Below are positions 1,838 through 35,628 of a stretch of 42,728 nt of DNA, piece by piece (position 1 is the stretch's first letter; each line of letters opens with the position of its first letter). This DNA comes from a virus. The stretch spans positions 1-42,728 of the IMG/VR virus record IMGVR_UViG_3300012793_000001; one strand, 5' to 3'. The position numbers were made by a program, and so were the translations under genes. A model generated the notes under the pieces. The model worked only from the letters and a program-made list of their open reading frames with translations, was not told the DNA's origin and did not search any database.

Positions 1838-2149
1838 TCATCCGCCTCCATTTTTCAAACTGATGTATAGCTGCTGCGCCTCTTTCCAAAGTTCATCTGT
1901 CGTGACATCCATGAAATTCTTTCCAAAGTGATTGCTGTCTACTAACCGCTTTGATATAAGCAAATGTCGATACATGAGCATGAACACTCTGAATTTAGCT
2001 TCCGCTCCAGTCGATTCTGTATCGCCTGTCTCTTTGACATAACCAGTCATAGACTCTAGCGGAAACTTCATCGATTCTTGATGTTCAGCAGGCAAAAGGT
2101 TGAATATCAATTTCACAGGCTTACTAAAATCCCTCTGTGTCTCCGACAT
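1838..2149 (-). CDS. Hypothetical protein (103 aa)
   Basis: ORF in operon context. It overlaps the end of the replisome organizer gene by 26 nt. Confidence 0.6.
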   Translation of the reverse strand: MSETQRDFSKPVKLIFNLLPAEHQESMKFPLESMTGYVKETGDTESTGAEAKFRVFMLMYRHLLISKRLVDSNHFGKNFMDVTTDELWKEAQQLYISLKNGGG

Positions 2150-3014
2150 CTTCTAAGAACCTCCTTAAATCTTCATCAGTCACTTTTGGCTTGTTGCTAG
2201 AATAATCGACTGGCTCCTTCGCCCAATCTGGCAGTTGTTCTTGTCGAGCATACGATCGTGCCTGCTTCTTAGGTGTTTGCTTATCCTTTCTCGCCCAAGC
2301 TCTTATGGTTGCTAGATAATTTTTGTAAGTCTTACCAGACAGCTCACAGTATTCAGAAACTCGATCGATTCGTTGCTCCCAATCGTTTGGAAACTCTTCT
2401 TTGAGTTTTTCAAGTTGTTCATCATTCAAAAGAACATTTTTATATTCACCGTATCTATGGCGAGGGGGAGTTTTCTTCTTTTTCTTTATTTCTTTTTCTT
2501 TATCTATTTCTCTCTCTTTATCTATTTCTTTATCTATATCTACTTCTTTATCTATATCTGTACCGTCACGTGACGTCACGCTAACGTCACGACTAGCCTC
2601 GAGTAATTCTTGCTTTTTACGCTCACGGTATTTCCTGTTTCTCTCAGCATTCTTTAGCCTAACTTGCTCCATTCCTTCAATATTCTGATGTTTTTCCCAG
2701 TTGCTAATAGCAATCAAGCCATCATTGTTAAGATCAATCATGTTGAAACCAGCAAGAGTTTTGAGTGCTAGTCTTACTGTGTTAACATTCTTTCCAAATA
2801 GAGTTGCTAACATTTCTTCTGTGTAGGGCATATTCCTTTGTATATAGATCAAGCCATCGTCATTGGTCTTACCTGCTAGCACTAGAAGTCTTATCCATAT
2901 GACCAAGATTGCATCTGACTCAGGAACGGCTTGGATTAACCTTATTTTTTCATCGTCAAACATTGTCGTCTTAAGCTTGATCCAACTAATTTCTGCCAAC
3001 TCCTTACCCTCCAA
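2124..3014 (-). CDS. Phage replisome organizer / replication initiator (N-terminal replisome-organizer domain, charged repeat linker)
   Basis: SWIKLKTTMFDDEKIRLIQ...ILVIWIRLLVLAGK is the typical N-terminal domain. The central DIDKEVDIDKEIDKEREIDKEKE repeat region is encoded by DNA iterons. Confidence 0.8.
   Translation of the reverse strand: MEGKELAEISWIKLKTTMFDDEKIRLIQAVPESDAILVIWIRLLVLAGKTNDDGLIYIQRNMPYTEEMLATLFGKNVNTVRLALKTLAGFNMIDLNNDGLIAISNWEKHQNIEGMEQVRLKNAERNRKYRERKKQELLEASRDVSVTSRDGTDIDKEVDIDKEIDKEREIDKEKEIKKKKKTPPRHRYGEYKNVLLNDEQLEKLKEEFPNDWEQRIDRVSEYCELSGKTYKNYLATIRAWARKDKQTPKKQARSYARQEQLPDWAKEPVDYSSNKPKVTDEDLRRFLEDVGDTEGF
2499..2591. repeat. Candidate replication origin. TTTATCTAT iteron x4 (starts 2499, 2517, 2529, 2547), CGTCACG x3 (2564, 2574, 2585) and the 12-bp palindrome CGTCACGTGACG (2564..2575)
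   Basis: Repeats read directly. They lie inside the replisome organizer gene, where several Firmicute phages carry ori. Confidence 0.5.
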
Positions 3015-3681
3015 TCCTTAATTTTATGATTTCATCCTGTTTCAATTTGATGCCTATAACGTGATACTTCTTCTTAAACTCAGTAATCCCCATTTGATGC
3101 TTCTCGGTATGATGGGTTCTGCAAAGTGCTGCAAAAGTAAATTCTGTGTGATCAACTTCTTTCCGCTTACGCCTTCCTAGGGCTTTTTCAAAGTGATCGA
3201 TGTCAGCGTTCTTTTTACCGCAAATGCAGCAAGTCCTGTTTGTCACGCATTTATAGAAAAAGTACTGTTCATTTTGTGGCGGAATCTCATAGCCCTCACG
3301 GAATGGAATGTCATTTGCGAAGATAAAATCTAGTATCAATTCATCTAATGTTGAAACTTCATCGACTGTGTTCTCCGATTGATTCGACAAGCTGATGTTC
3401 TTCCCTGTGAAGTATCGAAATTGCCAATAGAACACGTCTTTAAGGCTTTCTAATGGTTCGCCAGTGTAAATGTATATGTCTTGCATTAAAGCGAATGTGA
3501 AGCGTCTCTGTTCGACTGTGAACCCTCGTGGGTCTTTGATGAATATTTCCGCTTGTCGCTCGCCGTCATATCCATCAAAGATTGTTTTGAGTCGTTCGAT
3601 GTTAAGCGATTCTTTGAGCTGCAAAGTAACTTTATCTCCATCAACATTTGTTATTTTTGCTAGATACGAAAGATTGTTCAT
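3004..3681 (-). CDS. Putative HNHc-type nuclease associated with the recombination module
   Basis: C-terminal CCICGKKNADIDHFE...CRTHHTEKH zinc/HNH-like motif. Located between the ERF gene and the replisome organizer. Confidence 0.7.
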   Translation of the reverse strand: MNNLSYLAKITNVDGDKVTLQLKESLNIERLKTIFDGYDGERQAEIFIKDPRGFTVEQRRFTFALMQDIYIYTGEPLESLKDVFYWQFRYFTGKNISLSNQSENTVDEVSTLDELILDFIFANDIPFREGYEIPPQNEQYFFYKCVTNRTCCICGKKNADIDHFEKALGRRKRKEVDHTEFTFAALCRTHHTEKHQMGITEFKKKYHVIGIKLKQDEIIKLRIGG

Positions 3682-3686
3682 TCAAA

Positions 3687-4331
3687 TCACTTCTTGCCTT
3701 GATAGTATTTTTCCAGTTCATTCAGATATCTAGTCAATGTCCCGAGTTGTTCTGTGTTAACCTTGCTGATATCTACTGAGTAACCAATTTTCTTTTCCGT
3801 AATCTGGTCAAAGAAGTTTTTGCTTTCAAGTTTCGCCATACCAGCAATTTCATCAGATCGTTTTTGCAAAGCTTCTTGTTGCGATTTTGTAATTGGCTTA
3901 GGTGTTGCTTGCTTAACTTGCTCGGTATATTCATCCGAATCTGCATCCTTGGTATCATCAATCTGATAAAGTCCGTTCATTGCATATTTACGGGCATAAG
4001 ATGAAGCTGTTCCTGTTATTTGAGATTCATCCATTCCCTTTTTAGCAAGCGGTTCTCTAGCATATGCAGTTGCAATTTCTTCTTCGCCAGTTTTTACATC
4101 CTTGATTGATGCAGTTGCTTTAATGTAATGCCAATCGCCTATCATTACTGGCTCATCAGAAAGTTTTGCAACTAGTCCATATTTATAGGCAAGAGGTTTA
4201 ACAGCTTCCAAAATATCTTCGGCACTTCTGTAGTTGTACTTACCAAAATTATTTCTTTGGCTCTTGGGAGCTTTCAATTCTGTTATCAAAAGAGATACTC
4301 TCTCTAGAAATGTTCGTTCTTTATCGCTCAA
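3687..4331 (-). CDS. erf: ERF-family single-strand annealing recombinase
   Basis: NNFGKYNYRSAEDILEAVKPLAYKYGL and TASSYARKYAMNGLYQIDD motifs. Sits in the position of the recombination module. Confidence 0.8.
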   Translation of the reverse strand: MSDKERTFLERVSLLITELKAPKSQRNNFGKYNYRSAEDILEAVKPLAYKYGLVAKLSDEPVMIGDWHYIKATASIKDVKTGEEEIATAYAREPLAKKGMDESQITGTASSYARKYAMNGLYQIDDTKDADSDEYTEQVKQATPKPITKSQQEALQKRSDEIAGMAKLESKNFFDQITEKKIGYSVDISKVNTEQLGTLTRYLNELEKYYQGKK

Positions 4332-4663
4332 TTAAATTCCTCCTGTCTTTGTTTCAGCCATTCTTTACCACCTACAAGCCGCAACGTGCTAATCATTAGT
4401 GATTCGGGTCTATATTCATCAACCATTTTTAAAAAGTTATCTTGTTGTAAAACGTATTTAGCCATAGTTCCGTTACTGTTTTCTCGATACCCTATAAACA
4501 TCCAATCTGATTCATGAACAATCGTTCCGTTATCGTCTTCATTCCAATGTGCTGACAGGTCTACTTCTTCCTCGTTGTCGTCTAAAGAATGGATATTAGT
4601 CATCACATGGCTGGTTTCGTCTTGCATCAGGTTGTCGTAATTTGTTGCGATATAATCTGACAT
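4328..4663 (-). CDS. Hypothetical acidic protein (111 aa)
   Basis: Start moved to the internal ATG 4663, preceded by GAGAGGAGTGGGAAG. The longer track ORF would overlap the upstream gene. Confidence 0.6.
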   Translation of the reverse strand: MSDYIATNYDNLMQDETSHVMTNIHSLDDNEEEVDLSAHWNEDDNGTIVHESDWMFIGYRENSNGTMAKYVLQQDNFLKMVDEYRPESLMISTLRLVGGKEWLKQRQEEFN

Positions 4664-4736
4664 CTTCCCACTCCTCTCGATTTGTGGTAAACTTAGGTAT
4701 ATATTTTTTCGTTTCTGACTGACTATAGCTTGCCGG

Positions 4737-5003
4737 CTAGTCGGTCTTTTTTGTTTCCAATACCTCGGTTTCAATAAAATTAATCCAATATCTAGCTTTT
4801 TTTCCTACCGCTTGAATCGATGCTTCTTGTCTGTTTTCCCAGGCATCAGCAATCGTTCTTAGGCTGCTTATTAACTCAACTGCAATAATGCCCAACTTGT
4901 TAACGTTCGGAACTATGCGATCCATGTCCTCGCCATGCGAACCGGTCGCTGATGTGCTACCGATCAGGATTTGGACCAATTTTAAAATTTCATCTTCACT
5001 CAT
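4737..5003 (-). CDS. Hypothetical protein (88 aa)
   Basis: ORF with an ATGA start/stop overlap with the upstream micro-ORF. Confidence 0.6.
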   Translation of the reverse strand: MSEDEILKLVQILIGSTSATGSHGEDMDRIVPNVNKLGIIAVELISSLRTIADAWENRQEASIQAVGKKARYWINFIETEVLETKKTD

Positions 5004-5125
5004 AAATTCCCCCTCCGTTTCTTCATCCGTTCAATATTCTGTCTTGATTGAATCAAAGGCTTGTTATACTTGTACCAGCGGTCAGCAATGATTTTGCCAA
5101 TACGTAGTGCTTCAGCTCTGGTCAT
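5000..5125 (-). CDS. Micro-ORF, 41 aa (MTRAEALRIGKIIADRWYKYNKPLIQSRQNIERMKKRRGNL)
   Basis: Hand translated. Its start overlaps the upstream stop (ATAG/ATG) and its stop overlaps the downstream ATG (ATGA). Below the size cut-off of the ORF track. Confidence 0.45.
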   Translation of the reverse strand: MTRAEALRIGKIIADRWYKYNKPLIQSRQNIERMKKRRGNL

Positions 5126-5126
5126 A

Positions 5127-5264
5127 CTATTTAACCCCCATGATCCAAATCAGAGTTAACAAAAGTACAATGTTTAAACCAATGCTTAAATATGAAATTG
5201 CTTGGAGTTGTCGTGCTTTGTAAAAGTGATTTCTATTTAGACTTGCTAGCCATTTTTTCTTCAT
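5127..5264 (-). CDS. Micro-ORF, 45 aa, with one predicted TM helix (MKKKWLASLNRNHFYKARQLQAISYLSIGLNIVLLLTLIWIMGVK)
   Basis: Hand translated. AGGAGGAG RBS and a start/stop overlap with the flanking micro-ORFs. Confidence 0.5.
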   Translation of the reverse strand: MKKKWLASLNRNHFYKARQLQAISYLSIGLNIVLLLTLIWIMGVK

Positions 5265-5374
5265 GCTGACTCCTCCTTGAAATATCGATCAATCAAAGCG
5301 AGCGCTTCTTCTTTTGTAGAGACGGTATGCCACATTGTCGATCCGTTTGTTTCTATTGAGATAGTGATTTTCAT
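5261..5374 (-). CDS. Micro-ORF, 37 aa (MKITISIETNGSTMWHTVSTKEEALALIDRYFKEESA)
   Basis: Hand translated. AAAGGAGAAACCGC precedes the ATG, and the stop overlaps the next ATG. Confidence 0.45.
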   Translation of the reverse strand: MKITISIETNGSTMWHTVSTKEEALALIDRYFKEESA

Positions 5375-5381
5375 GCGGTTT

Positions 5382-5414
5382 CTCCTTTGGTATAATTGTT
5401 AAAAACTGGTGGTG
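5382..5414 (+). promoter_or_regulatory. Promoter/5'UTR cassette copy 1: extended -10 TGgTATAAT (TATAAT 5391..5396) followed by aaaaactGGTGGTG RBS
   Basis: ctcctttggtataattgttaaaaactggtggtg is near-identical to 7943..7982. It sits directly in front of the plus-strand gene at 5420. Confidence 0.65.
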
Positions 5415-5419
5415 TATTA

Positions 5420-6073
5420 ATGGAAATAAAAACGAAGAAATTTCATTCTAATAGCAGTAATTACTTGCAAAATATTACTATCGAGCTTCCTAAGTTTTGT
5501 CCGAGATGCGGAGTTTCGAACAATCCCTCAACAGAGTATTTAGGTATATCTAGCAATCTTGCATATTTCAAACACTACTGTACCGACTGCTCAAGAAACC
5601 ATTTTTGCTTCAATTTAGTTAATGATAAAATCGGTAAAATGGTAGCTTTATATCCTAACTCTCAGCCTAGTAATCTGCCAAAACTGGTTTGTGATTTTTC
5701 GCCTCGATTTGAAAAAATTTATCACGATGCGGAACTTAGTGAGTTTAATAATGCTTTAGACCTTGCTGGTGTTGGTTATCGAGTATCTTTAGAAATACTT
5801 TTGAAAGATTTTGCTTTAGCAAACGAACTTGATTCTTACGAAGAAATTGCCAAAAAGACATTAAACAATGCTATAAGCCAATACTTTAAATCAGATATTG
5901 ATCTACAAACTTCTGCAGATGTGGTCCGAATATTAGGTAACGACTATGCTCATTGGGACCAACATGAAGGGTATGACATCGAGACTTTAAAATCTTACTT
6001 ACAAATATTCATTCAAATTATCAATACTAAGCTAATGCTCAAGAATCCACCGGTATCTCGAAAAAAATCATAG
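5420..6073 (+). CDS. Zinc-ribbon plus DUF4145-like protein (217 aa), encoded opposite to the surrounding early operon
   Basis: N-terminal CPRCG...CTDC zinc ribbon. The C-terminal AGVGYRVSLEILLKDF...VRILGNDYAHW block resembles the DUF4145 R-x-x-GN-x-x-x-H signature. Start set to ATG 5420, 5 nt after GGTGGTG. Confidence 0.7.
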   Translation: MEIKTKKFHSNSSNYLQNITIELPKFCPRCGVSNNPSTEYLGISSNLAYFKHYCTDCSRNHFCFNLVNDKIGKMVALYPNSQPSNLPKLVCDFSPRFEKIYHDAELSEFNNALDLAGVGYRVSLEILLKDFALANELDSYEEIAKKTLNNAISQYFKSDIDLQTSADVVRILGNDYAHWDQHEGYDIETLKSYLQIFIQIINTKLMLKNPPVSRKKS

Positions 6074-6310
6074 TTCAATATTGTCTAGATACTCTCTGAA
6101 CATATTCAGCAGCTTTAATTTTATTTCTTTTGTTTTTATGTTTTTATCAAGTTCACTAGATATAACTTTTTTAGCTTCTGATATTTTTAATCCACTTAAT
6201 TCCGGAACGATTGCTGAAAATACTTCTTGACATATTTTTTCTTTTTCAACAATTAACTGATTTCTCTTTATCTCATAGGAAGCAAGTTGATCCATAATAT
6301 TCTTTTTCAC
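6068..6310 (-). CDS. Hypothetical coiled-coil protein (80 aa, GTG start)
   Basis: GGAAGGAGGGG RBS 6 nt upstream of GTG 6310. Converges with the 5420..6073 gene and overlaps it by 6 nt. Confidence 0.6.
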   Translation of the reverse strand: MKKNIMDQLASYEIKRNQLIVEKEKICQEVFSAIVPELSGLKISEAKKVISSELDKNIKTKEIKLKLLNMFREYLDNIEL

Positions 6311-6341: not shown

Positions 6342-6530
6342 TCATCCAATACTCCAGTTGCGATCGGCCACTTCATCAATACCCAACAAATCTGCAATAG
6401 CATAGATATGCTCTTTCATCAGCTCTTGAAAGTCTTCGTAAGTTGCTGGCTTTCCGTCCACTTGTAAATTTGATGATTCGGCATACTCCATTGCACTTTT
6501 TAGCGCATCTTTGACGTTCTCAAATTCCAT
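6342..6530 (-). CDS. Hypothetical acidic protein (62 aa)
   Basis: ORF whose start ATG overlaps the stop of the upstream gene. Confidence 0.55.
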   Translation of the reverse strand: MEFENVKDALKSAMEYAESSNLQVDGKPATYEDFQELMKEHIYAIADLLGIDEVADRNWSIG

Positions 6531-7045
6531 TATTTCTCCTCCAACTCCAAAACGTTCAATACTGCAGGCGTTGCTTGCAAATCTGCCAGACTAAAGTGTT
6601 CGTAGGTTAGTACATTTAAATAAGCTAAAGCTTCGTCGTAGTCCACTCGTTTAATTGATGTGTAACGGACAACGTTCATGCGTTTCTTAAGCTTAGAGTG
6701 AATGCGGCTCATGAACATACCTTTCCAAGCTTTAAATAGATTGCCGCTGTATGTTTTACCTTGGCGCTTTTGATGTTCTTCGGTTAAGCTAATGGCAAGT
6801 TTGCTGACGATTGAGCGCAATTCCTTTTGCTCTTCATACGTGATAGTGACTTGCTCAGACATTTTTTCATATAACGTGCGGCTTTCATTGACGTGTTCTT
6901 TTACTTCGTCTTTCAGTTCAATCATTTCTTCTTTGACATTTCCCATTTCACGCAACAAACTTACCAGCGCTTCACTTTGTTTGCCTTGTGTTTCTAATGT
7001 GTGGATCAATGCGATCGTGCTGTTTTCCATTAATTGATTACCCAT
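6530..7045 (-). CDS. ORF6C-domain protein (C-terminal domain of the KilA/ORF6N antirepressor families)
   Basis: The FKAWKGMFMSRIHSKLKKRMNVVRYTSIKRVDYDEALAYL block is typical of the ORF6C domain. Confidence 0.6.
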   Translation of the reverse strand: MGNQLMENSTIALIHTLETQGKQSEALVSLLREMGNVKEEMIELKDEVKEHVNESRTLYEKMSEQVTITYEEQKELRSIVSKLAISLTEEHQKRQGKTYSGNLFKAWKGMFMSRIHSKLKKRMNVVRYTSIKRVDYDEALAYLNVLTYEHFSLADLQATPAVLNVLELEEK

Positions 7046-7941
7046 GCTACTTCTCCTCCGATTTCTTGTTTGATTTGTTTTAATAATTTTTCAACTCTGG
7101 AAATTGAATCCGTGAGTTTTTGCTTTGTCTCATCATTCGCCCCAGCGATTGCTTGTGAATCGTATACCGTTACCGCTTGTTCTTTAACAAATTGATTCAT
7201 ATTGATAATGAGTTTGTGCACACTGATATCGGCATCACGTTGTAGACGTTTTAGTTGTGCTTGTTCTAGTTCATCGGTTTCAACCTTCGCTTTTTCTTGC
7301 AACGCTTTTTCGGAATCCGCTATCCGCTGTTTCAAAGCTTCTTGTTCAGCTTTAAGCGCTTGGTTTTCTCTGGTGATTTCATCAACGATCTTTGTAGATT
7401 GCTTAAGCTGCTGATAGTCGTCTGGAACCTTTTCGACAATGACTTCTTTTTCAATTACTTCCGTTTCTTGCTCATTCAGATCATCAATCATCTGTGCTTG
7501 TAGTTTATTTTGCTCATCCTTAGCTTTTAGCTGCTTTTCAAGCTCTCTGTATTCTTTGGTGGTTTTTATATCACCCGAGAGCACCATTTCTACTGCTTCT
7601 GGTTTAGCTGACGGTTTAGATATTTCTGTTTTGAGTGTGGTTGGTAGTTCTTGGAACATTTCGATTTGTTCGTATTCGTGCATTTGATGCACAAATTTGG
7701 CTTGATTGATATAGTTGTAAACAGTTCTCTTTTTTAAGCCGATTGACGTGAACCACTTTTCGAAGGTTCCTGTTTTATAACTTGCCAGCTTTTCTTGTGC
7801 TTCTATAAGTTTTTCTCCTAATTGAATCGAGCTATTCAAAACAATTGATTGTAGTTCTTGTTCTTTTAGTTTTAAAAATTGTGCAGTGGTATCATCTACT
7901 ATTGAATAGTCAAAATTTGTTGAAACTTCATTCAATGTCAT
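7030..7941 (-). CDS. DUF3102-like early protein with a long coiled coil (303 aa)
   Basis: N-terminal LGEKLIEAQEKLASYKTGTFEKWFTSIGLKKRTVYNYINQAKF resembles DUF3102. The C-terminal half is heptad-rich. Confidence 0.55.
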   Translation of the reverse strand: MTLNEVSTNFDYSIVDDTTAQFLKLKEQELQSIVLNSSIQLGEKLIEAQEKLASYKTGTFEKWFTSIGLKKRTVYNYINQAKFVHQMHEYEQIEMFQELPTTLKTEISKPSAKPEAVEMVLSGDIKTTKEYRELEKQLKAKDEQNKLQAQMIDDLNEQETEVIEKEVIVEKVPDDYQQLKQSTKIVDEITRENQALKAEQEALKQRIADSEKALQEKAKVETDELEQAQLKRLQRDADISVHKLIINMNQFVKEQAVTVYDSQAIAGANDETKQKLTDSISRVEKLLKQIKQEIGGEVAWVIN

Positions 7942-7942
7942 T

Positions 7943-7982
7943 CTCCTTTCTTTGGTATAATTGTTTTAAAAACTGGTGGTGG
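7943..7982 (+). promoter_or_regulatory. Promoter/5'UTR cassette copy 2: extended -10 TGgTATAAT (TATAAT 7956..7961) followed by aaaaactGGTGGTGG RBS
   Basis: ctcctttctttggtataattgttttaaaaactggtggtgg lies directly in front of the plus-strand gene at 7987. Confidence 0.65.
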
Positions 7983-7986
7983 TTAA

Positions 7987-8397
7987 ATGTCAATTTATGA
8001 CGCAGTGATAATGCTGTTCCCTTTGTTTAACAAGTATTCTTTTTATATTTCAGTTTTTTTGTTTTTCTTTTGGCTCTACAAAAGAAATAGTAAAAAATAT
8101 ATGAAGAGAGTTGAAAATAAAGCTAAAATACAGTATTTACAAAGAGTTTTTGATATCCATAAATACAATGAAGAAAATCCAAACCATATGGTCCAGATAA
8201 CTTCGAGCTGGCTAGACATTTACAAATATAAGATTTCTCAAACTGATAACACTTTGTTACTTTCGTTAGTCTTTGCTTACATTTCGTTTAATTCAAAATC
8301 GTTCACTGAGAATACTAGCGAGGATTTTTTCAAGTTTTTAACTATTTCTACAACGCTATTCCTATCTGGCATAACATATATAAAACAAAGAAAATAG
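7987..8397 (+). CDS. Membrane protein (136 aa, about 4 hydrophobic segments), encoded opposite to the early operon
   Basis: Hydrophobic stretches AVIMLFPLF, FYISVFLFFFWLY, LLLSLVFAYISF and ISTTLFLSGITYI. Uses the same promoter/RBS cassette as the 5420 gene. Confidence 0.65.
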   Translation: MSIYDAVIMLFPLFNKYSFYISVFLFFFWLYKRNSKKYMKRVENKAKIQYLQRVFDIHKYNEENPNHMVQITSSWLDIYKYKISQTDNTLLLSLVFAYISFNSKSFTENTSEDFFKFLTISTTLFLSGITYIKQRK

Positions 8398-8602: not shown

Positions 8603-8612
8603 TTTATACCTT

Positions 8613-8633
8613 CTCCTTTCTTTGGTATAATTT
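8613..8633 (+). promoter_or_regulatory. Promoter cassette copy 3 (orphan): TGgTATAAT (TATAAT 8626..8631) pointing antisense into the xis-like and cro-like genes
   Basis: 8611..8632 is 22/22 identical to 7941..7962. No RBS or credible plus-strand ORF follows. Confidence 0.45.
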
Positions 8634-8642
8634 CCTTATCAG

Positions 8643-8882
8643 TCAGCGGTGCTTCCCGATCCCGATTTTGTGTTCTTCCATAAAAGCATCGATATCTCGA
8701 ACATCATATTTTGGGTTGCTCTCATCATCAAATACGATTTGCTTCAGTCCTCGCTTAATCCATGCATTCATAGTCTTTGGACTTGTCCCAGCGTAGATAC
8801 AAGCCTCACGCTGATTCAGGTATCGCTTAGGAACGTACTTTTTCAAAATAAGTTGAATAGTTTTTTCATCAATATCCGGCAT
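8643..8882 (-). CDS. Excisionase-like / MerR-type HTH DNA-binding protein (79 aa)
   Basis: YLNQREACIYAGTSPKTMNAWIKRG is an HTH_17-like motif. Second gene of the early operon. Confidence 0.6.
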   Translation of the reverse strand: MPDIDEKTIQLILKKYVPKRYLNQREACIYAGTSPKTMNAWIKRGLKQIVFDDESNPKYDVRDIDAFMEEHKIGIGKHR

Positions 8883-8897
8883 GGTCTCCCTCCTATC

Positions 8898-9101
8898 TCA
8901 AAGTTCATACATCGCTATAATCGAATCGATAATCTTGTTAGCTTCGGCGGATGTTCTCTTGCCATTTAAAATTAAAGACAGGTAGCTCTTATCGATTCCA
9001 AATCTGTCTGCAAGCATCTTGTATGTTAGGAAATTTGAATTTTCAACATATGTTTTGATTTTTTCTCTATCTTTTTGGGTAATTTCCGCAATATCAGCCA
9101 T
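8898..9101 (-). CDS. Cro-like XRE-family HTH regulator (67 aa)
   Basis: YKMLADRFGIDKSYLSLILNGKR HTH. It is the first gene, divergent from the repressor gene across the switch region. Confidence 0.75.
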   Translation of the reverse strand: MADIAEITQKDREKIKTYVENSNFLTYKMLADRFGIDKSYLSLILNGKRTSAEANKIIDSIIAMYEL

Positions 9102-9397: not shown

Positions 9398-9766
9398 ATG
9401 AATACTTACGAAATAATAAAGGAATTAGCAAAAGAAAAAGGAATATCCATTAGACAGCTCGAAATGAATTTCGGGTATTCGAATGGATATTTAGGAAGTT
9501 GGAAAAGACAAACTCCTAACTCTATCGAATTAGCTCGTTTAGCTGATTACTTTGGAGTCTCTGTAGATTACCTCTTGGGAAGAACAGATACACCTCAAAA
9601 TGTAGAAAATAAAGATGAATATGATGACTTAGTCATGATGTTTCGCAAAAATGAAATGGAAATACCTGAAGATAGACGTGATGAGTATAGACGCGAAGTG
9701 GAGAAATTGATGGATTTTGTTAAATTCACAATGAAAGAATTAGACGAAAAGAACAAAAATAAGTAG
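9398..9766 (+). CDS. XRE-family phage repressor (CI/ImmR-like)
   Basis: N-terminal HTH IKELAKEKGISIRQLEMNFGYSNGYLGSWKR...LARLADYFGVSVDYLLGR. Immediately followed by an ImmA-like protease gene. Confidence 0.85.
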   Translation: MNTYEIIKELAKEKGISIRQLEMNFGYSNGYLGSWKRQTPNSIELARLADYFGVSVDYLLGRTDTPQNVENKDEYDDLVMMFRKNEMEIPEDRRDEYRREVEKLMDFVKFTMKELDEKNKNK

Positions 9767-9775
9767 GTGTAGTTG

Positions 9776-10453
9776 ATGGATTTTGAATTGTCGGAGCGTA
9801 TCGAAAACAATAACGTGCTAATTAATAGATTTTTATTAGAAAATGATATAAACCCTATCGAATATAATTGGGAAATGTATTTTAAAAAATTTATAACTGA
9901 TAGAAAAATCGAGTTTATAAATACCCCTCCCAGATTATCCCTAGATTTTTATTCTGGATTCACAGTTAAAAGTAAATATACGACAGCAATTTTTATTAAT
10001 CCGAATATGGTTAAAGCTCGTCAGCGTTTTAGTGCTGCCCACGAGACGGACCACATCATCTATGATTTTGATGATAGTCAGCCTACTCAAAAATTTTTTA
10101 ACGTAGAAGAAAATACGGCTTTCTATACTGCAGAAGAACTCAAAGTTGAAGCGTTAGCAAATGCAGGAGCTGGAGTTAAAATGCTTCCTGATATAACAAT
10201 AGTAAAATTTATGGAGACAGACATCTCTTTCTGCAAAATGGCAGATATTTTAGGATTATCTTATCCAGCTTTATATACCAGGTTAGTACAATTCTGCCAA
10301 ACTACATTGAACTTAAATGGTTCATCAGCGACGTCACTTGTTCAAAGGTTTCAGTATAATAAAAATGATAAATATTTTATAAATCAACGTCTTTCTGGTT
10401 GGGGAAATACAAAGAAAAAAGAAATCGAATATACCTATCAGAACAGTTTATAA
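9776..10453 (+). CDS. ImmA/IrrE-family zinc metalloprotease (anti-repressor protease)
   Basis: HExxH motif (AAHETDHIIYD) and the conserved pairing with an XRE repressor. Start set to ATG 9776. Confidence 0.8.
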   Translation: MDFELSERIENNNVLINRFLLENDINPIEYNWEMYFKKFITDRKIEFINTPPRLSLDFYSGFTVKSKYTTAIFINPNMVKARQRFSAAHETDHIIYDFDDSQPTQKFFNVEENTAFYTAEELKVEALANAGAGVKMLPDITIVKFMETDISFCKMADILGLSYPALYTRLVQFCQTTLNLNGSSATSLVQRFQYNKNDKYFINQRLSGWGNTKKKEIEYTYQNSL

Positions 10454-10544: not shown

Positions 10545-11429
10545 ATGAAAAAAGTAGTATATGGCTTGCTATTTGTTACTTTAGTGCTTTCAGGCTGTGG
10601 CGGTCAAGGTGGCGACGGTGGTGATGTTGAAGAATCTAGTTCTTCGTCAACGATTGCCGTATCCTCTAGCAAAGAAGAAGTAATTGAGTTTAGTGTATAC
10701 CAACCTCAACATTACTTGGAAAACAACAATTTTAACTTATCTGGAAAAGCTGATCCAGAAAGTAAAATCACTGTAAATCAAGGCAATGAATTAGTAAAAG
10801 AAATAGAACCAACAGCCTCTGGTTCATTTAGCATGACAGCTCCACTTCCAGAAACGGAAGATACCACATACGAAGTATCAAATGGAAAAGAAACGAAAAC
10901 AGTGATTGTAAAGTCAAAGGCGACATTAGAGAAAGTTGCTGCAGAGGCCGAAGCAACTAGAAAGAAACAACAGCAAGAGAAAGAAGAAGCTGATAAAAAA
11001 GCTGCTGAAGAAGCAGCAGCGAAAGAACAAGCGGAAAAAGAAGCTGCTGAAAAACAAAAAAAAGAGGCTGAAGAGGCTGCAAGAAAAGCTGCCGAAGAAG
11101 AAAGAGCTAGTTATGATACTGGAATCACATACGAAAACTTAGCGAGAAACCCTGATACTTATTTAGCTGAAAAAGTTAAGTTTTCTGGAAGAATAATTCA
11201 AGTGATGAAAGGTGAAGAACACTCTCAGTTCCGTTTTGCAGTTGACGATAATTATGACCAAGTACTGTATATTGAAATATCGGAAGATCAACTATCAAAC
11301 AATCGTCTTCTAGAAGATGACTATATTACTATCAGAGGCACCTCTTATGGAGAATACACTTATACTTCTGCTTTAGGTGGAGAAATAACTGTTCCCGGAG
11401 TAGTAGTTGATTCATTTGAATTAAATTAA
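10545..11429 (+). CDS. Lipoprotein with an A/E/K-rich coiled linker and a C-terminal beta-rich domain. Candidate superinfection-exclusion protein
   Basis: Signal peptide plus lipobox (LVLSGC). Located between the repressor/ImmA genes and int. Confidence 0.75.
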   Translation: MKKVVYGLLFVTLVLSGCGGQGGDGGDVEESSSSSTIAVSSSKEEVIEFSVYQPQHYLENNNFNLSGKADPESKITVNQGNELVKEIEPTASGSFSMTAPLPETEDTTYEVSNGKETKTVIVKSKATLEKVAAEAEATRKKQQQEKEEADKKAAEEAAAKEQAEKEAAEKQKKEAEEAARKAAEEERASYDTGITYENLARNPDTYLAEKVKFSGRIIQVMKGEEHSQFRFAVDDNYDQVLYIEISEDQLSNNRLLEDDYITIRGTSYGEYTYTSALGGEITVPGVVVDSFELN

Positions 11430-11471: not shown

Positions 11472-11530
11472 CAAACAGAAAATAACCAATAGGTTACGCC
11501 TATTGTAACAAATTCTAGGAGTTGAAGCAA

Positions 11531-12664
11531 TTGGCTAAGAAAGAACAGGATATCCGAATAAAAGAATACGTCAAAAAAAATGGCGAAAAAGCTTATATGT
11601 TTAAGCTGTATCTTGGCATTGATCAAGACACCAAAAAACCAATCCGCACTACAAGACGCGGCTTTAGAACTCAAAGAGAAGCACGTTTAGCAATCGCTGA
11701 TTTAGAACTAAACGGATTATCAAAACCAGAGTCTGAACCACAAATGATTCATACCTATGAACAGATATATAATCTATGGTATGAGGAATACAAAACAACA
11801 GTTAAAGCTTCAACGTTACTAAAAACAGAGCGAGTTTTCAAAAATCATATACTTCCAGCATTTGGTAATAAACCTATACAAGACATCAAACCGATGGATG
11901 CACAGAATCAAATGAATATTTGGCACAAGAAGCTTGTGCGTGCAAGCATGGTTATGAATTATGCTGGATTGGTATTTGATTACGCAATAAGAATGCAATT
12001 GATCAATATGAATCCAACAAAAGTGATTAAGAAGCCTGTAAGGAAGGAATCTGTTAGAGAAGACAAAGATATGAATTTCTATGACAAAGATGAGTTGAAG
12101 AAATTTATGGCAGCTTTAGAAAACAACAACAATTTTAGAGCTTTTGTATATTTTCGTTTGTTAGCATTTACCGGAATGCGCAAAGGAGAATCATTAGCGC
12201 TGAAATGGTCTGATATCGATTTGGAAAAACAAACATTATACATAAACAAGGCTGTTTCGAGAAGTGCAACAGGGCTTTATATTCAAACGCCAAAAACTCC
12301 TTCTTCTATTCGAAGAATCTCAATTGATGACAAAACTGTGTCTATATTACAAGAGTACAAAAAAGAGTCTCCAGATGGTTTAGTCTTTCAAAGTGAAGAT
12401 GGAGGAATATTATCGCCTGCTAAACCGAGAAAATGGTACCTAACTGCCATGAAAAACTTGCCGGATGATTTCAAACAGATATCTATTCATGGCTTTCGTC
12501 ACACACATGCATCATTATTATTTGAAGCCGGTGCTTCTATTAAAGACGTTCAATCAAGGCTTGGTCATTCTGACATCCAAACTACAATGGATGTATATAC
12601 CCACGTATCAAAAACAGCAAAAGAGCAGTTAGCAAATAGGTTTAATAATTACGTTGACTTTTAA
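11531..12664 (+). CDS. int: Tyrosine integrase
   Basis: TGMRKGESLAL (catalytic R), HGFRHTHASLL (HxxR) and LGHSDIQTTMDVYTHV (catalytic Y). Start moved to TTG 11531, 9 nt after AGGAG. Confidence 0.92.
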   Translation: MAKKEQDIRIKEYVKKNGEKAYMFKLYLGIDQDTKKPIRTTRRGFRTQREARLAIADLELNGLSKPESEPQMIHTYEQIYNLWYEEYKTTVKASTLLKTERVFKNHILPAFGNKPIQDIKPMDAQNQMNIWHKKLVRASMVMNYAGLVFDYAIRMQLINMNPTKVIKKPVRKESVREDKDMNFYDKDELKKFMAALENNNNFRAFVYFRLLAFTGMRKGESLALKWSDIDLEKQTLYINKAVSRSATGLYIQTPKTPSSIRRISIDDKTVSILQEYKKESPDGLVFQSEDGGILSPAKPRKWYLTAMKNLPDDFKQISIHGFRHTHASLLFEAGASIKDVQSRLGHSDIQTTMDVYTHVSKTAKEQLANRFNNYVDF

Positions 12665-12668
12665 TCGT

Positions 12669-12688
12669 GGTAGTCAAAATGGTAGTCA
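12669..12688 (+). repeat. Arm-type repeats GGTAGTCA x2 (12669 and 12681, 12-nt phase), putative integrase arm sites on the P arm
   Basis: Direct reading. The same octamer recurs three times at 12864..12894. Confidence 0.5.
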
Positions 12689-12720
12689 TTTCTAAAGAAG
12701 CATTGTTCTATCAATAAAAA

Positions 12721-12740
12721 TGCGACTCCCGCCATCTCCA
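12721..12740 (+). other. Candidate attP core: tgCGACTCCCGCCATCTCCA resembles the T-loop/T-stem, 3' acceptor strand and discriminator of a tmRNA (ssrA) gene
   Basis: The pattern is a partial T-loop (CGACT), 5 nt of T-stem (CCCGC), 7 nt of acceptor strand (CATCTCC) and A. Firmicute ssrA genes end ...TTCGAxTCCCGCCxTCTCCA(CCA). There is no 5' half, so this is a fragment and not a gene. Confidence 0.45.
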
Positions 12741-12778
12741 TAGACTAAAATCGAGAAGATTTTCGTAGTTTTTCCTGA

Positions 12779-12820
12779 GAGGTAGAAACCCTATTACACA
12801 GAGGTTTCTACCTCTTTTTT
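12779..12820 (+). terminator. Strong intrinsic terminator (perfect 12-bp stem GAGGTAGAAACC/GGTTTCTACCTC followed by TTTTTT), flanked by the 17-bp direct repeat TTTTCGTAGTTTTTCCT (12760..12776 and 12843..12859)
   Basis: Read directly. Confidence 0.85.
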
Positions 12821-12863
12821 GGTGTTCAAGCTATAGAAAAGCTTTTCGTAGTTTTTCCTTTTT

Positions 12864-12894
12864 AGTAGTCAAATGGTAGTCAAAATGGTAGTCA
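12864..12894 (+). repeat. Arm-type repeats (A/G)GTAGTCA x3 (12864, 12875, 12887; 11-12-nt phase), putative integrase arm sites on the P' arm
   Basis: Direct reading. Helically phased copies of the motif seen at 12669..12688. Confidence 0.5.
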
Positions 12895-12961
12895 ATTATC
12901 ATCATCAAACCAATTTATTTTCCTCGCTTATCCTAGATTGATTTTTTTATTTCCTGTTCGC

Positions 12962-12990
12962 TTTACAAACAGAACAAACGTTCGTATACT
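12962..12990 (+). promoter_or_regulatory. Promoter TTTACA-17-TATACT with a LexA (Cheo-type) SOS box aGAACaaacGTTCg (12971..12984) in the spacer
   Basis: GAAC-N4-GTTC matches the Gram-positive LexA/DinR consensus CGAAC-N4-GTTCG. It lies 22 nt upstream of the polymerase start codon. Confidence 0.7.
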
Positions 12991-13011
12991 TTCCTTAAGG
13001 AGTGAGCTATT

Positions 13012-14376
13012 ATGGGAAGTTTTCGATACGAACTTGAGCCCAAACGTGACATTCTTTTTATTGATGTAAAATCATTTTATGCTTCAGTTGAATGTGTTCA
13101 ACGTGGATTTCACCCAATGAAGACCATGTTGGTTGTCATGTCTCAATCTGATAATACAGGAAATGGGTTAGTCTTGGCTGCTTCGCCACTGGCAAAAAAG
13201 AAGTTAGGCATTTCAAATGTTACTCGTGCTGATAATTTACCAAACCATCCTTTATTGTTCAAGGTCCCTCCACGCATGAACTTATATATAAAAGAAAATT
13301 TGAAAGTAAACAACGTATTTAGAAAATATGTAGCCGATGAGGATCTACTCCTCTACTCTATTGATGAATCAATGATGGACGTAACTAAATCACTGAACTT
13401 GTTTGTCCCAGACAAAAGTTTGTCTCGAAGCGAAAGACGATGGCGACTAGCTAAGATGATTCAACGTGATGTCTATGACACGACAAAACTTTATGTGACT
13501 GTTGGTATTGGAGATAATCCTCTTTTGGCCAAACTAGCATTAGACAACGAATCGAAGCATAATAAATCACTTATTGCGGAATGGACCTATCAAGACGTGG
13601 AAAGTAAAGTTTGGAACATCTCTCCTATCACAGAATTTTGGGGCATTGGATCACGCACACAAAAACGACTTGAGCGAATGGGAATAGAAACGATAGAACA
13701 GCTCGCAAAGGCTAACCCCGATTTGTTGCGAAGTAGAATGGGGATCATAGGAGAACAGTTATACCATCATGCGAATGGAATTGATCGGACGATTATTTCT
13801 GAGCCAGCTCCTCAAATCAGAGATAAAAGTTATGGTAATAGCCAGGTACTAAATAGAAACTACTATCTACATGATGAAATAGAAATTGTCATCAAGGAAA
13901 TGGCTGAACAGGTTGCTGCACGTATTCGCAGACATCATTGCCAAACACAATGTATTCATCTTTATATTGGTGTTGCTTTTGGAGAAACACAAAAAGGATT
14001 CTCTAGACAAATGACTGTCCCACCAACAAATAACACAAAAGTATTGGTCTCGCACGCACTGTTCCTATTTCGTAAATATTATACTGGCCAAGTGGTTCGT
14101 CACGTTGGTATCACTTTTTCAAAATTAATTTACACATCAAGTGTTCAGCTTGATTTATTTGCTGATGCTGAGGACCAGATAAAGCAAATAAAACTGGATA
14201 AAATCATCGATAAGATACGTGAGAAGTACGGATTTACTTCTATCGTTCATGCCAACAGCAAGCTCGATGGCGCTCGTGCGATTGCAAGAAGTAAGCTAGT
14301 CGGTGGACACGCTGGTGGTATGGATGGAATATCTGATGAAGGGACTGATAAAAATAAACATCATAAGTCTGTATGA
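13012..14376 (+). CDS. Y-family (UmuC/DinB/UvrX-like) translesion DNA polymerase
   Basis: ILFIDVKSFYASVE, LYSIDESMMDVT and VGIGDNPLLAKLA motifs of the IMS/Y-family palm domain. GGAG RBS. Confidence 0.9.
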   Translation: MGSFRYELEPKRDILFIDVKSFYASVECVQRGFHPMKTMLVVMSQSDNTGNGLVLAASPLAKKKLGISNVTRADNLPNHPLLFKVPPRMNLYIKENLKVNNVFRKYVADEDLLLYSIDESMMDVTKSLNLFVPDKSLSRSERRWRLAKMIQRDVYDTTKLYVTVGIGDNPLLAKLALDNESKHNKSLIAEWTYQDVESKVWNISPITEFWGIGSRTQKRLERMGIETIEQLAKANPDLLRSRMGIIGEQLYHHANGIDRTIISEPAPQIRDKSYGNSQVLNRNYYLHDEIEIVIKEMAEQVAARIRRHHCQTQCIHLYIGVAFGETQKGFSRQMTVPPTNNTKVLVSHALFLFRKYYTGQVVRHVGITFSKLIYTSSVQLDLFADAEDQIKQIKLDKIIDKIREKYGFTSIVHANSKLDGARAIARSKLVGGHAGGMDGISDEGTDKNKHHKSV

Positions 14377-14540
14377 GCAAGGCTACATTTCCTATTCAGA
14401 GTTTATTCAGGAGTTTCCAGATTCAATTTCCGAATCTCAAGAATGTCTTTTCGGTACAAAGTGCGTTGAGTTTTATGTTGATGTTACTTTAGGTAAAACT
14501 GATTTTAATTACTTTGTACAAGATTATGGAGGCGATCACC

Positions 14541-14801
14541 ATGAAATCATTGAAAGGTGTAGTTTCGAAAATACGAGTGTTGAAGATGAGCAAGACCCCT
14601 TTGGTGCGGTTCTCGATTAATGGTATAAATTGCCTTATTGCTGCCCACAGTTTGAACTTTTTAGTTGACGTTGATGAGGGAATGCAAATCGTGGTTGCTG
14701 GCGAGTATAATGATCGGGAGCAGTTTGTTGTGAAGAAGTATTCGGTGATTGGCAAGACGAAGATTATGATGGTATTTGAAAATTTAATGGCTTATAATTA
14801 A
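14541..14801 (+). CDS. Hypothetical small beta-rich protein (86 aa)
   Basis: ATG 14541 lies 8 nt after GGAGG. I recognise no motif. Confidence 0.55.
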   Translation: MKSLKGVVSKIRVLKMSKTPLVRFSINGINCLIAAHSLNFLVDVDEGMQIVVAGEYNDREQFVVKKYSVIGKTKIMMVFENLMAYN

Positions 14802-14826
14802 TATATTACTTATAGAGGATGGTTTT

Positions 14827-15408
14827 ATGAAAAAAGTCATATTATCTTTATCGTTTTGTTTTTCATTACTTTTTATATCCGCATGCGGTTCTGAGAACTC
14901 AAGCTCGGACAACACCATGAATGATCATAGTGCAGTCAGTGAAACAAAATTAACTGAGGAATCGTCAGTTGTTGATCAATCTGTTTTAGATATTTACGAT
15001 GATAATGAAGACTGGTCTCTAGGAAAAATGGATATTCCTGGATTGATTAATGCTTCATCTGGAAATCAAGAGAAAGCTATTGAAGATGCTAACATGGTTA
15101 TTAATCTATCTTTGTTTAAGTATTTTATTATAGACTCTAATAAAGATAAAATTGAACTAACTGCTGAAGGCGATAATAAAGACTTCTATTCCATAATGTT
15201 TACTATTATGAGTATGCCCGATAAAGAAACGATGGAGACTCTTTCTAATAATTTCGAAGAGTTAGTTTCCCGGAATCCAATAAATCCAGACATTGATTTA
15301 TATACATTAACTGCATTATATTCTTCAGATTCAGAGGAAGAAGATACTACACCTGTCGTTATATCATATCAATTAAATGAAAATAATAAGGTAGAAAAGA
15401 TTGATTAA
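14827..15408 (+). CDS. Lipoprotein of unknown function (193 aa)
   Basis: Signal peptide plus lipobox (LLFISAC), GAGGATGG RBS, AT-rich composition. Confidence 0.75.
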   Translation: MKKVILSLSFCFSLLFISACGSENSSSDNTMNDHSAVSETKLTEESSVVDQSVLDIYDDNEDWSLGKMDIPGLINASSGNQEKAIEDANMVINLSLFKYFIIDSNKDKIELTAEGDNKDFYSIMFTIMSMPDKETMETLSNNFEELVSRNPINPDIDLYTLTALYSSDSEEEDTTPVVISYQLNENNKVEKID

Positions 15409-15410
15409 TA

Positions 15411-15449
15411 AAAGGCTCCCTACTCAAAATTGAGTAAGGAGCCTTTTTA
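15411..15449. terminator. Bidirectional intrinsic terminator between convergent genes
   Basis: 12-bp stem GGCTCCCTACTC/GAGTAAGGAGCC with one mismatch, flanked by AAAA and TTTTT. Confidence 0.8.
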
Positions 15450-15483
15450 CTTATCAAGGTAACACGCTTGAATTATAGTTTAA

Positions 15484-16284
15484 TCAACCTTTGGGTTTGA
15501 TTGTATTTTCATTGAGCTTTTGTTGTAGTTTAACAACATGTGCATTAGGTTCTTTGATAGCTGTTGGAGCGTTTGTCAATCTTACTCCTTCGTTTAGAGC
15601 GAGACCAATTAAATTTACTATTTCTTTTTGTCCATCAGGAAGTTTACTCTTATCAGGATAAATTAAACTATACAAAATGCTTTTCTCCCACAATTCGAGT
15701 TGATACTTCTTCTTTTTTTGCTTCCAAAAAAAACCATTGTGAAAAACATACTTTACTCTAGTTTTATTTAATTCTTTGTAAATGATTTTTGTAATGCGCG
15801 AGTGAAATTTATTAAAGTCATTTACGATAATCGTACCAACCAAAGGATACTGATCAGGATGTAGAGGTGATAGATATTTAGTTAAATTCATAAAGTATCT
15901 TTCTAAACAATATAAAGTGGCACCAGAATCTAGACCCAAATTATCAAAATCATTTGTTCGCAATTTGCTTATATCAGAGATAAAGTTCTCTAAGCTTTTA
16001 GGATTCAACATTATTTCTGGAACAATAGCAAACGAGTCAAAAAAATCTTCCTCCCTATTATTGAAAGTTTCTTCAGGAAAAGCAGGAGCTATAACCTTCA
16101 ATGATTTAATCGTATCCTTATATTTGTTTAAACTTGTAAATATACTTTCGCCTACCATAGATTTCACCTTCGCTTTTTGTTCTTTGCGAAGCTTGCCTTT
16201 ATATAAAAATGCTCCTAGAAATGCACTAAGGATAATACCAAGAATCCCAAGAAGAGCAACTATAATTTCTGTTGGAATTTCCAT
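15484..16284 (-). CDS. N-terminally membrane-anchored protein of unknown function (266 aa), cargo gene downstream of the endolysin
   Basis: One TM helix (IIVALLGILGIILSAFLGAFLY) followed by a soluble domain with no motif I recognise. AT-rich. Confidence 0.7.
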   Translation of the reverse strand: MEIPTEIIVALLGILGIILSAFLGAFLYKGKLRKEQKAKVKSMVGESIFTSLNKYKDTIKSLKVIAPAFPEETFNNREEDFFDSFAIVPEIMLNPKSLENFISDISKLRTNDFDNLGLDSGATLYCLERYFMNLTKYLSPLHPDQYPLVGTIIVNDFNKFHSRITKIIYKELNKTRVKYVFHNGFFWKQKKKKYQLELWEKSILYSLIYPDKSKLPDGQKEIVNLIGLALNEGVRLTNAPTAIKEPNAHVVKLQQKLNENTIKPKG

Positions 16285-16348
16285 AAATTTTCTCCCTAAT
16301 ATTTTTCTTTGAGTATATCAAAATATAGAGTAAGCTTCTATAGCTTCT

Positions 16349-17308
16349 TTACCACGGCAACTTATCATTGTTCAATGCTCGTTGCAATGCCTTAACCATA
16401 TCGGATTTTGGACTGATAATACCGTCCACTGTCGTTCCTAATGCTTTTTGCATCGCTTTGATTGTTGCTTCACCAAACAGACCATCAATTGCCCCATTAT
16501 AAAATCCTTTGGCTTTCAATCGTTTTTGCCATGTACGAATAAGATTCGATCCAATCAACGTTTTATCAAACTTCGCTGCATACAGATTCTTGTTACACGC
16601 TTGCCGGTATTGATGACTGATCTCGTCGTCCGGTGTCATTCCTTCGTATTCCATCGCCCGATTAGCTGTTCCTGGACCAAACATCCCATCTTCTTCGATT
16701 CTTGTGTAATTTGGCTTAACTGGTGGTTTTACCGCAGGTGTACTTGGTTTAATCGGTGGCGTGCTTGGTTTTGACGCTGCGCTATTCGTGGCATATCCGA
16801 ATACAGCCAATGCAGCATTAACACCAGCATCCATTTTTTTAGACATGATATCCATATCTTTCTTACTATCCACAAATCCCCATTCAATCAAAATAGCTGA
16901 ACCAGATGATGCCCGGATCACATACAAGGATGTAGTAGCCTTCGCCCCACGATTTACCCATCCAGTAGCCTTACATACTGCAATACAAATCTCCTCTGCT
17001 AATTTTTTAGCTGCTGTATTTCCTGCATAATACCAAACTTCAAAGCCGTTTGCAGTTCCGTTAAATGCATTCAGATGGTGACTAACATGATAACTTTTTC
17101 CTACAGCATTCATTTTACGAACGATATTGTATAGGTTATCATTTACAGTTCTCCCAACGTTATCTGTTGCATCTACTGCTTTGGTTGCAGCACGGAATTT
17201 ATCATGAATTTTCTGAGCAACCTCATGCTCTTTAAGTCCACAACCAGATGCCCCAGGAACGATCGCATTGTGTCCTCGATGTGAGGTAGAATTATAATAT
17301 TTGACCAT
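16349..17308 (-). CDS. Endolysin: N-acetylmuramoyl-L-alanine amidase (Amidase_3-like) with a C-terminal PG_binding_1-like domain
   Basis: SHHLNAFNGTANGFEVWYY and ILIEWGFVD motifs, a P/T/K-rich linker, and the C-terminal GFYNGAIDGLFGEATIKAMQKALG repeat. Confidence 0.9.
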   Translation of the reverse strand: MVKYYNSTSHRGHNAIVPGASGCGLKEHEVAQKIHDKFRAATKAVDATDNVGRTVNDNLYNIVRKMNAVGKSYHVSHHLNAFNGTANGFEVWYYAGNTAAKKLAEEICIAVCKATGWVNRGAKATTSLYVIRASSGSAILIEWGFVDSKKDMDIMSKKMDAGVNAALAVFGYATNSAASKPSTPPIKPSTPAVKPPVKPNYTRIEEDGMFGPGTANRAMEYEGMTPDDEISHQYRQACNKNLYAAKFDKTLIGSNLIRTWQKRLKAKGFYNGAIDGLFGEATIKAMQKALGTTVDGIISPKSDMVKALQRALNNDKLPW

Positions 17309-35614: not shown

Positions 35615-35628
35615 CGTTCCACCTCCCT

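Follow-up and report, generated by a model that had tools for sequence, protein, structure and literature searches.

What does a single gene do when it lies within the early operon of a temperate phage and is transcribed against that operon's direction? The gene in question spans positions 5420-6073 (+ strand) of IMG/VR virus record IMGVR_UViG_3300012793_000001, the 42,728-nucleotide stretch of DNA analyzed here at its full length (the window), and from an ATG start it encodes a 217-residue protein that joins a zinc ribbon to a DUF4145/HEPN domain. Judged by sequence, this unannotated gene is a distant relative of RAZR (PD-T7-4), a defense system whose mechanism was published in 2026, with a shorter C-terminus than RAZR, and we assign it to a sister family of that system. 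Its product is probably a zinc-ribbon-HEPN nuclease that would act as a single protein in abortive infection, and most likely the resident phage would use this suicide-type RNase to block rival phages.

Anantharaman et al. assigned DUF4145 to the HEPN RNase superfamily in 2013 and already listed zinc-ribbon fusions of the domain as well as members from double-stranded DNA viruses (PMC3710099). PD-T7-4 was found as a single-gene defense system, described as 'Zn finger-HEPN', by Vassallo et al. in 2022, and their supplementary tables give its accession as RRL46918.1 (PMC9519451). It was renamed RAZR, for ring-activated zinc-finger RNase, by Zhang et al. (Nature 2026), with RAZR-Ec deriving from E. 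coli UMB1727 and structures available as PDB 9Y9C and 9Y6U (PMC13017515). The Cys4 zinc-ribbon domain of RAZR binds the phage trigger, sets specificity and is more variable than the HEPN domain, and its DUF4145 domain is a HEPN RNase that requires R146 and H154 (PMC13017515). RAZR is harmless when alone; activation comes when it polymerizes, as a 24-mer, around the rings that an Erf-like recombinase (Gp77) forms or around portal rings of about 170 Å, whereupon it cleaves single-stranded RNA non-specifically and infection is aborted (PMC13017515). The original prediction, made from the letters of the window, treated DUF4145 as a domain without an assigned mechanism, which is out of date given the RNase classification of 2013 (PMC3710099) and the RAZR mechanism of 2026 (PMC13017515).

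The N-terminal, beta-rich zinc-ribbon domain of the 217-residue protein occupies residues 1-80 (5420-5659), and its Cys4 ribbon consists of CPRC (residues 27-30; nucleotides 5498-5509) and CTDC (residues 54-57; nucleotides 5579-5590). The C-terminal, all-helical DUF4145/HEPN domain covers residues 85-217 (5672-6070). An alignment of 39 homologues shows no variation at C27, C57, P79, R121, E125, R170, G173, N174, H178, P210 or P211, and 90% or more of the sequences retain C30 and C54, bearing out the zinc ribbon originally predicted. R121 and E125 lie within a GYRxxLE motif, and a conserved PPVSR motif is present in the C-terminal tail. The predicted catalytic Rx7H motif, R170...H178, is located at nucleotides 5927-5953 within VRILGNDYAHW, the segment from which DUF4145 had been recognized, and the Pfam profile agrees narrowly: DUF4145 (PF13643) matches residues 109-189 at E 5.4e-5 with 23.6 bits against a gathering cut-off of 23.1, and the R...H catalytic motif is kept. 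Because the match is barely over the threshold, many members of the family lack a Pfam annotation. A Pfam match to CPDase was dropped, as it scored 13.6 bits against a cut-off of 21.

The AlphaFold2 model built from the homologue alignment (mean predicted local distance difference test score, pLDDT, of 91) has a six-stranded N-terminal domain at residues 1-78 (pLDDT about 85-94) and an all-helical C-terminal domain at residues 88-208. When this model is compared with the PDB by Foldseek, the top ranks are HEPN domains, namely 1wol, 2q00 and the sacsin HEPN domain 3o10; the match to 1wol has a probability of 0.99 and a TM-score of 0.63 normalized to the target, and the E-values of the HEPN matches are weak (at least 0.08).

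The relationship to RAZR is seen at the profile-profile level only. A direct phmmer search of the protein against PDB sequences returned nothing relevant and missed RAZR-Ec (9y9c), and the PADLOC PD-T7-4 model matches residues 27-205 weakly (E 2.4e-4, 18.7 bits), so annotation by that model may miss the family. A bridge came from a tblastn search with a 23-residue fragment of RAZR-Ec, which led to Streptococcus prophage proteins that include gp0009 of Streptococcus phage Javan263, a bona fide RAZR (PADLOC PD-T7-4 at E 7.7e-71; PDB 9y9c at E 7.8e-43 over both domains). Around this protein we assembled 28 aligned sequences of canonical RAZR, with Enterococcus, Listeria and Vibrio members among them, and comparison of the resulting profile with that of the window family by hhalign gave a probability of 97.1% and an E-value of 6.8e-11 over 153 columns at ~21% identity. 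The aligned span takes in both Cys pairs, the YP linker, R121 (opposite R131) and the R-GN-H motif. C27, C30, C54 and C57 are placed on C23, C26, C57 and C60 of canonical RAZR, R170 and H178 on R172 and H180 of the RAZR family profile, and the invariant P79 of 'YP' on the invariant RAZR P91; the rest of the linker differs.

Comparison with RAZR-Ec itself gives a corresponding register. RAZR-Ec 16-CPHCGV aligns with CPRCGV of the 217-residue protein, and RAZR-Ec 138-IQQAADICRIVGNQAVH-154 (PDB 9y9c) aligns residue by residue with ADVVRILGNDYAH of the window, such that R146 corresponds to R170 and H154 to H178. The alignments show the predicted catalytic residues R170 and H178 to be conserved and to match the two residues that are experimentally essential in RAZR. 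A profile of 37 columns around the motif also revealed RAZR-Ec residues 138-154, together with the TALE-like BurrH repeats ('ADIVKIAGN'), which are spurious. With profiles A1 and A2, C2H2 zinc-finger proteins (Aart, CTCF) ranked above 9y9c (E about 0.07), and were rejected as artefacts of CxxC spacing because the window family has no His pair; weak profile matches to RPB9/RPA12 ribbons were also seen. The HEPN-only profile A3 lost 9y9c and matched the TPR repeats of OGT, a spurious match between helices.

The two families share an architecture: each is a single protein of about 220 residues with an N-terminal Cys4 ribbon whose first knuckle is CPxCG, an (I/L)YP motif in a linker that otherwise differs, and a C-terminal DUF4145/HEPN domain with the Rx7H motif (AD-x-x-R-I-x-GN-x-x-x-H), encoded by a prophage-borne, stand-alone gene with its own predicted promoter. 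They differ in that RAZR runs ~25 residues further, into a helix-loop-helix extension with LP...RD (invariant P222, R232 and D233), and in that hidden Markov model scores are 145-330 bits inside each family versus 7-34 bits across them. We conclude from these comparisons that the 217-residue protein is homologous to RAZR and shares its architecture, yet is a member of a sister family rather than an orthologue of RAZR. BxaP, a BREX-associated protein (PMC10799925), is likewise an abortive-infection-type defense protein with a DUF4145/HEPN domain, but its DUF4145 lies at the N-terminus, joined to a HEAT-like domain, it has no zinc ribbon, and it is linked to BREX rather than being a prophage moron.

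The sister family is large and appears to evolve separately from RAZR. An exhaustive profile search recovered 2,406 cluster representatives (clustering at 50% identity) with E<=1e-3, 473 of them at E<=1e-30, and nearly all of the top 150 representatives are 210-245 residues long with both domains matched. The family occurs chiefly in prophages of lactic-acid bacteria, enterococci, Listeria, clostridia and Fusobacterium; to our knowledge, RAZR has to date been characterized from two enterobacterial homologues only. Mean pairwise identity within the window family is 0.28 for the zinc-ribbon domain versus 0.49 for the HEPN domain, and the corresponding values for RAZR are 0.30 and 0.60. The zinc-ribbon domain is presumed to act as the sensor or specificity domain. 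A sub-group of distant relatives (e.g. 'ATWLGNDETHY', alignment A2) has Trp at the position of R170 and keeps the GN...H part of the motif; this could reflect a shifted catalytic Arg, or else an inactive or repurposed clade.

The gene begins at ATG 5420 rather than at the upstream TTG 5396, because that TTG falls within a -10 hexamer and most homologues begin at the aligned 'ME'. The hexamer is part of a promoter-like site at 5368-5396 (+), composed of a -35 element TTTTCA (5368-5373), a 17-nt spacer and a TG-extended -10 element TGgTATAAT (5388-5396), which in a consensus scan matched 10 of 12 positions plus the TG. It is followed at 5397-5419 by a leader that reads TTGTTAAAAACTGGTGGTGTATTA and contains the ribosome-binding site GGTGGTG (5408-5414), 5 nt ahead of the start codon. 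Such a consensus match alone is little proof, because the region holds 17 of them and 16.8 are expected from shuffled sequence. Better evidence for a real promoter is conservation across phages: the 11-mer TTTGGTATAAT, which contains the extended -10, and the leader AAAAACTGGTGGTG are kept 5' of homologues with just 62-71% protein identity, where the flanking DNA diverges, and the promoter site is kept at the homologous loci L006, L007 and L012. The original prediction of a promoter belonging to the gene itself gains support from this conservation.

That prediction had also described a single gene inserted against the flow of the early operon and converging on its neighbor, and both points hold. 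All genes around 5420-6073 are on the minus strand, so that the gene opposes the early operon. Beyond its stop codon lie minus-strand genes at 6068-6310, 6342-6530, 6530-7045 (ORF6C) and 7030-7941; on its promoter side are minus-strand open reading frames (ORFs) at 5261-5374, 5127-5264, 5000-5125, 4737-5003 and 4328-4774, followed further along, and also on the minus strand, by genes for Erf (3687-4331), HNHc_6 (3004-3681), a replisome organizer (2124-3014) and a single-stranded DNA-binding protein (817-1287). The -35 element overlaps the ATG (5372-5374) of the ORF at 5261-5374. At the other end, 5420-6073 (+) and 6068-6310 (-) converge, and their stop codons share exactly 6 nt (TCATAG, 6068-6073, with TAG on the plus and TGA on the minus strand). 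A terminator scan found no intrinsic terminator 3' of the gene on the plus strand, and folding of 6066-6150 has a z-score of 0.44.

Family members occupy the same position in many other prophages, from both Firmicutes and Fusobacteria. In Streptococcus phage Javan330 the family gene is antisense between small cro-side genes and an antirepressor, and the same antisense early-operon position is found in Lacticaseibacillus phage JNU_P10, Fusobacterium phage phiHugo and Anaerostipes phage AC844P2. A Listeria aquatica prophage has the order integrase, cI, two small minus-strand genes, family gene (+) and ORF6N/ORF6C (-). Opposite-strand genes flank the family gene on both sides at 32 of the 55 non-identical IMG/VR loci (by crude ORF calling), and the commonest pattern, '--- + -++', places one or a few early genes between it and the repressor/integrase block. 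Canonical RAZR in Javan263 (3521-4225 of locus L003, annotated as a hypothetical protein) has the same antisense early-operon position, and this site may be a defense hotspot that accommodates alternative zinc-ribbon-HEPN families.

The gene is missing from the related Enterococcus gallinarum phage phiEG37K, in which the early operon is uninterrupted up to the switch; the flanking small genes are 91% identical, and homology ends at about 5345, just ahead of the promoter. Given this absence and the recurrent site, the gene is an accessory insertion (a moron). The suggestion of a defense moron, put forward in the original prediction, is thereby strengthened, the homology to the experimentally validated defense protein PD-T7-4/RAZR, the recurrent antisense position near the cI/cro switch and the absence from phiEG37K all being consistent with it. 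Co-occurrence with Erf was considered as a feature of the family and dropped, since other carriers have RecT, YqaJ or no visible recombinase.

The mechanism that we propose would follow that of RAZR. In the lysogen, transcription would start at the gene's private TG-extended -10 promoter and run the same way as the repressor and integrase genes; protein would thus be produced during repression of the opposing early operon. It would rest as inactive HEPN dimers or oligomers, as RAZR suggests. On infection by a rival phage, the variable zinc-ribbon domain might bind a multimeric phage protein, for which the Erf-like recombinase and portal rings that trigger RAZR are the precedent (PMC13017515). 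Binding would bring HEPN domains together in pairs whose R170 and H178 make up a composite active site, and the predicted outcome is non-specific cleavage of single-stranded RNA, a stop to translation and an aborted infection. The resident phage would in addition have to escape self-triggering by its own Erf and portal proteins; speculatively, it may carry non-cognate alleles, or strong early transcription upon induction may run head-on into the unterminated defense transcript and so silence the gene.

Several observations weigh against a RAZR-like defense nuclease. The Pfam DUF4145 score is just 0.5 bit over its threshold, and PHROGs assigns the protein to family 1305 (E 2e-38), which is labelled 'DNA binding protein'. 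A strong match to the RAZR family model is lacking, the 18.7 bits obtained with the PD-T7-4 model comparing with 235.9 bits for the true member Javan263 gp0009, and cross-family scores lie at 7-34 bits. Family profiles reach 9y9c at E 0.07-0.8 only and over the catalytic stretch, and 9y9c is not among the top 50 Foldseek matches of the AlphaFold2 model. The hhalign alignment ends at residue 181, leaving the last ~35 residues uncovered, and the family ends ~7 residues past PP(V)SR without the C-terminal extension of RAZR. The carrier phage moreover encodes both classes of RAZR trigger, an Erf-family single-strand annealing protein (3687-4331, minus strand; Pfam ERF at E 8.6e-37; PHROG 155, Erf-like) and a portal protein (34382-35632, minus strand; Pfam Phage_portal at E 4.9e-68), which is awkward unless the nuclease is insulated from them.

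The presence of these triggers, together with the location of the gene inside the early operon near the cI/cro switch, convergent with the early genes and without a terminator, could instead mean that the RNase serves the carrier's own life cycle and not the blocking of competitors. It might degrade leaky early transcripts and so stabilize lysogeny, or the phage's own Erf or portal rings might time host shut-off through it; a further copy of the promoter, aimed through the cro-like gene toward the repressor gene (see below), would fit such a role. However, the gene is dispensable, being missing in a related phage, it is found beside very different replication and recombination modules (RecT, YqaJ, DnaB/IstB), a fast-varying sensor domain suits an arms race better than self-recognition, and the closest characterized relative is a defense protein, and we consider a phage-internal regulator quite unlikely. 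If the regulatory role were instead that of a zinc-finger DNA-binding protein whose helical domain is catalytically irrelevant, the PHROG 1305 label and the weak profile matches to C2H2 proteins and RPB9/RPA12 ribbons would be accounted for. But the label is an unverified annotation, the C2H2 matches stem from CxxC spacing only, with the His pair missing, and conservation is strongest in the HEPN motif R170-G-N-H178 and at R121/E125; we give this explanation hardly any credence.

Numerous HEPN proteins act as toxins in type II toxin-antitoxin pairs (PMC3710099), and the overlap with the small convergent ORF at 6068-6310 might point to an addiction module, in which a HEPN toxin is held in check by a small neighboring antitoxin and stabilizes the prophage. 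HEPN-MNT pairs of this type have an adjacent, co-directional minimal nucleotidyltransferase (MNT) antitoxin, whereas at 5420-6073 both neighbors are on the opposite strand, neither has an MNT or nucleotidyltransferase match, and the 80-residue neighbor has no Pfam match. Neighbors differ among homologous loci and the stop-codon overlap is not conserved, there being none at the Listeria locus L084, and RAZR is non-toxic by itself (PMC13017515); a toxin module appears very improbable. Membrane superinfection-exclusion proteins of the Sie/Ltp type have a signal peptide, a lipobox or a transmembrane segment; the 217-residue protein has no hydrophobic segment (maximum 19-residue Kyte-Doolittle hydropathy 1.05) and no lipobox.

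For the abortive-infection nuclease, the reading that we favor, the consequences depend on how closely it follows RAZR. If the protein simply behaves as RAZR does, the result is an improvement of annotation and not new biology. Should ring sensing be true of the family, the principle of a supramolecular trigger would extend to Gram-positive hosts relevant to dairy fermentation and phage therapy, many natural variants of the sensor domain would become available for studies of specificity, and it would become a testable question how such a nuclease can be carried safely by a phage whose own Erf and portal are indispensable to it. It is also conceivable, although we regard it as unlikely, that the sister family is wired differently from E. 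coli RAZR and that convergent early transcription provides a built-in off-switch for the suicide RNase upon induction of the resident phage. The antisense early-operon position would then amount to a general, hitherto unrecognized defense hotspot in temperate phages of Gram-positive bacteria, where ring-sensing nucleases with new trigger specificities could replace one another.

The promoter element recurs elsewhere in the early operon. Exact plus-strand copies of TTTGGTATAAT are present at 5386-5396, 7951-7961 and 8621-8631, and with at most one mismatch there are 8 matches versus 1.85 expected. All three exact copies coincide with the ribosome-binding sites and start codons of minus-strand early genes, which begin at 5374, 7941 and 8602, respectively. 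Behind the first and second copies come a near-identical leader, TTGTT(TT)AAAAACTGGTGGTG, and then ATG, and because this promoter-leader is shared ahead of 5420 and 7987 the phage seems to reuse one cassette for antisense genes. The second of these genes (7987-8397, +) encodes 136 residues with a hydrophobic N-terminus, has a GC content of 28% versus 37.6% for the window and drew no match from Pfam, PHROGs or PADLOC. It may be a further accessory gene that lysogens express, with a possible role in exclusion or defense. The third copy of the promoter (8603-8631, +) has no plausible ORF downstream. It points antisense through the xis-like gene (8643-8882) and the cro-like gene (8898-9101) toward the repressor gene at 9398, a predicted geometry that recalls lambda PRE.

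The window as a whole is a circularly permuted genome of a temperate siphovirus type, and its gene layout has the look of a complete phage genome in permuted form, not of a host-flanked prophage: the early operon exits the left end and the late operon the right end, and only 3.7 kb separate integrase from endolysin (12664-16349). The lysogeny switch at 9398-10453 is of the ImmR/ImmA type, rather than that of a LexA-like self-cleaving cI, and consists of a helix-turn-helix repressor gene (9398-9766, +) and one for an ImmA/IrrE-type M78 peptidase (9773-10453, +), which also matches PADLOC capP at E 2.9e-8. The xis- and cro-like genes, both encoding small helix-turn-helix proteins on the minus strand, are the first of the early operon. 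A tyrosine integrase is encoded at 11522-12664 (+), and genes for terminase, portal, ClpP-type protease, capsid, tail and amidase endolysin lie within 16349-38134 on the minus strand.

Other cargo is present near the switch and the integrase. Between the ImmA-like peptidase and integrase genes, a gene at 10545-11429 (+) encodes a lipoprotein of 294 residues (PHROG 5319), with a signal peptide followed by the lipobox LSGC, which is a candidate surface superinfection-exclusion protein. The stretch from the integrase to the lysis module, where cargo is typical because the attachment site is adjacent, holds genes for a Y-family DNA polymerase (ImpB/MucB/SamB, UmuC-like; 13012-14376, +) and an uncharacterized 193-residue ORF (14827-15408, +). 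The nearest deposited phages infect Enterococcus gallinarum, but their similarity to the window is limited to short stretches of about 87-91% identity, and an identical 217-residue protein is encoded on two IMG/VR contigs of 42,370 and 49,573 bp.

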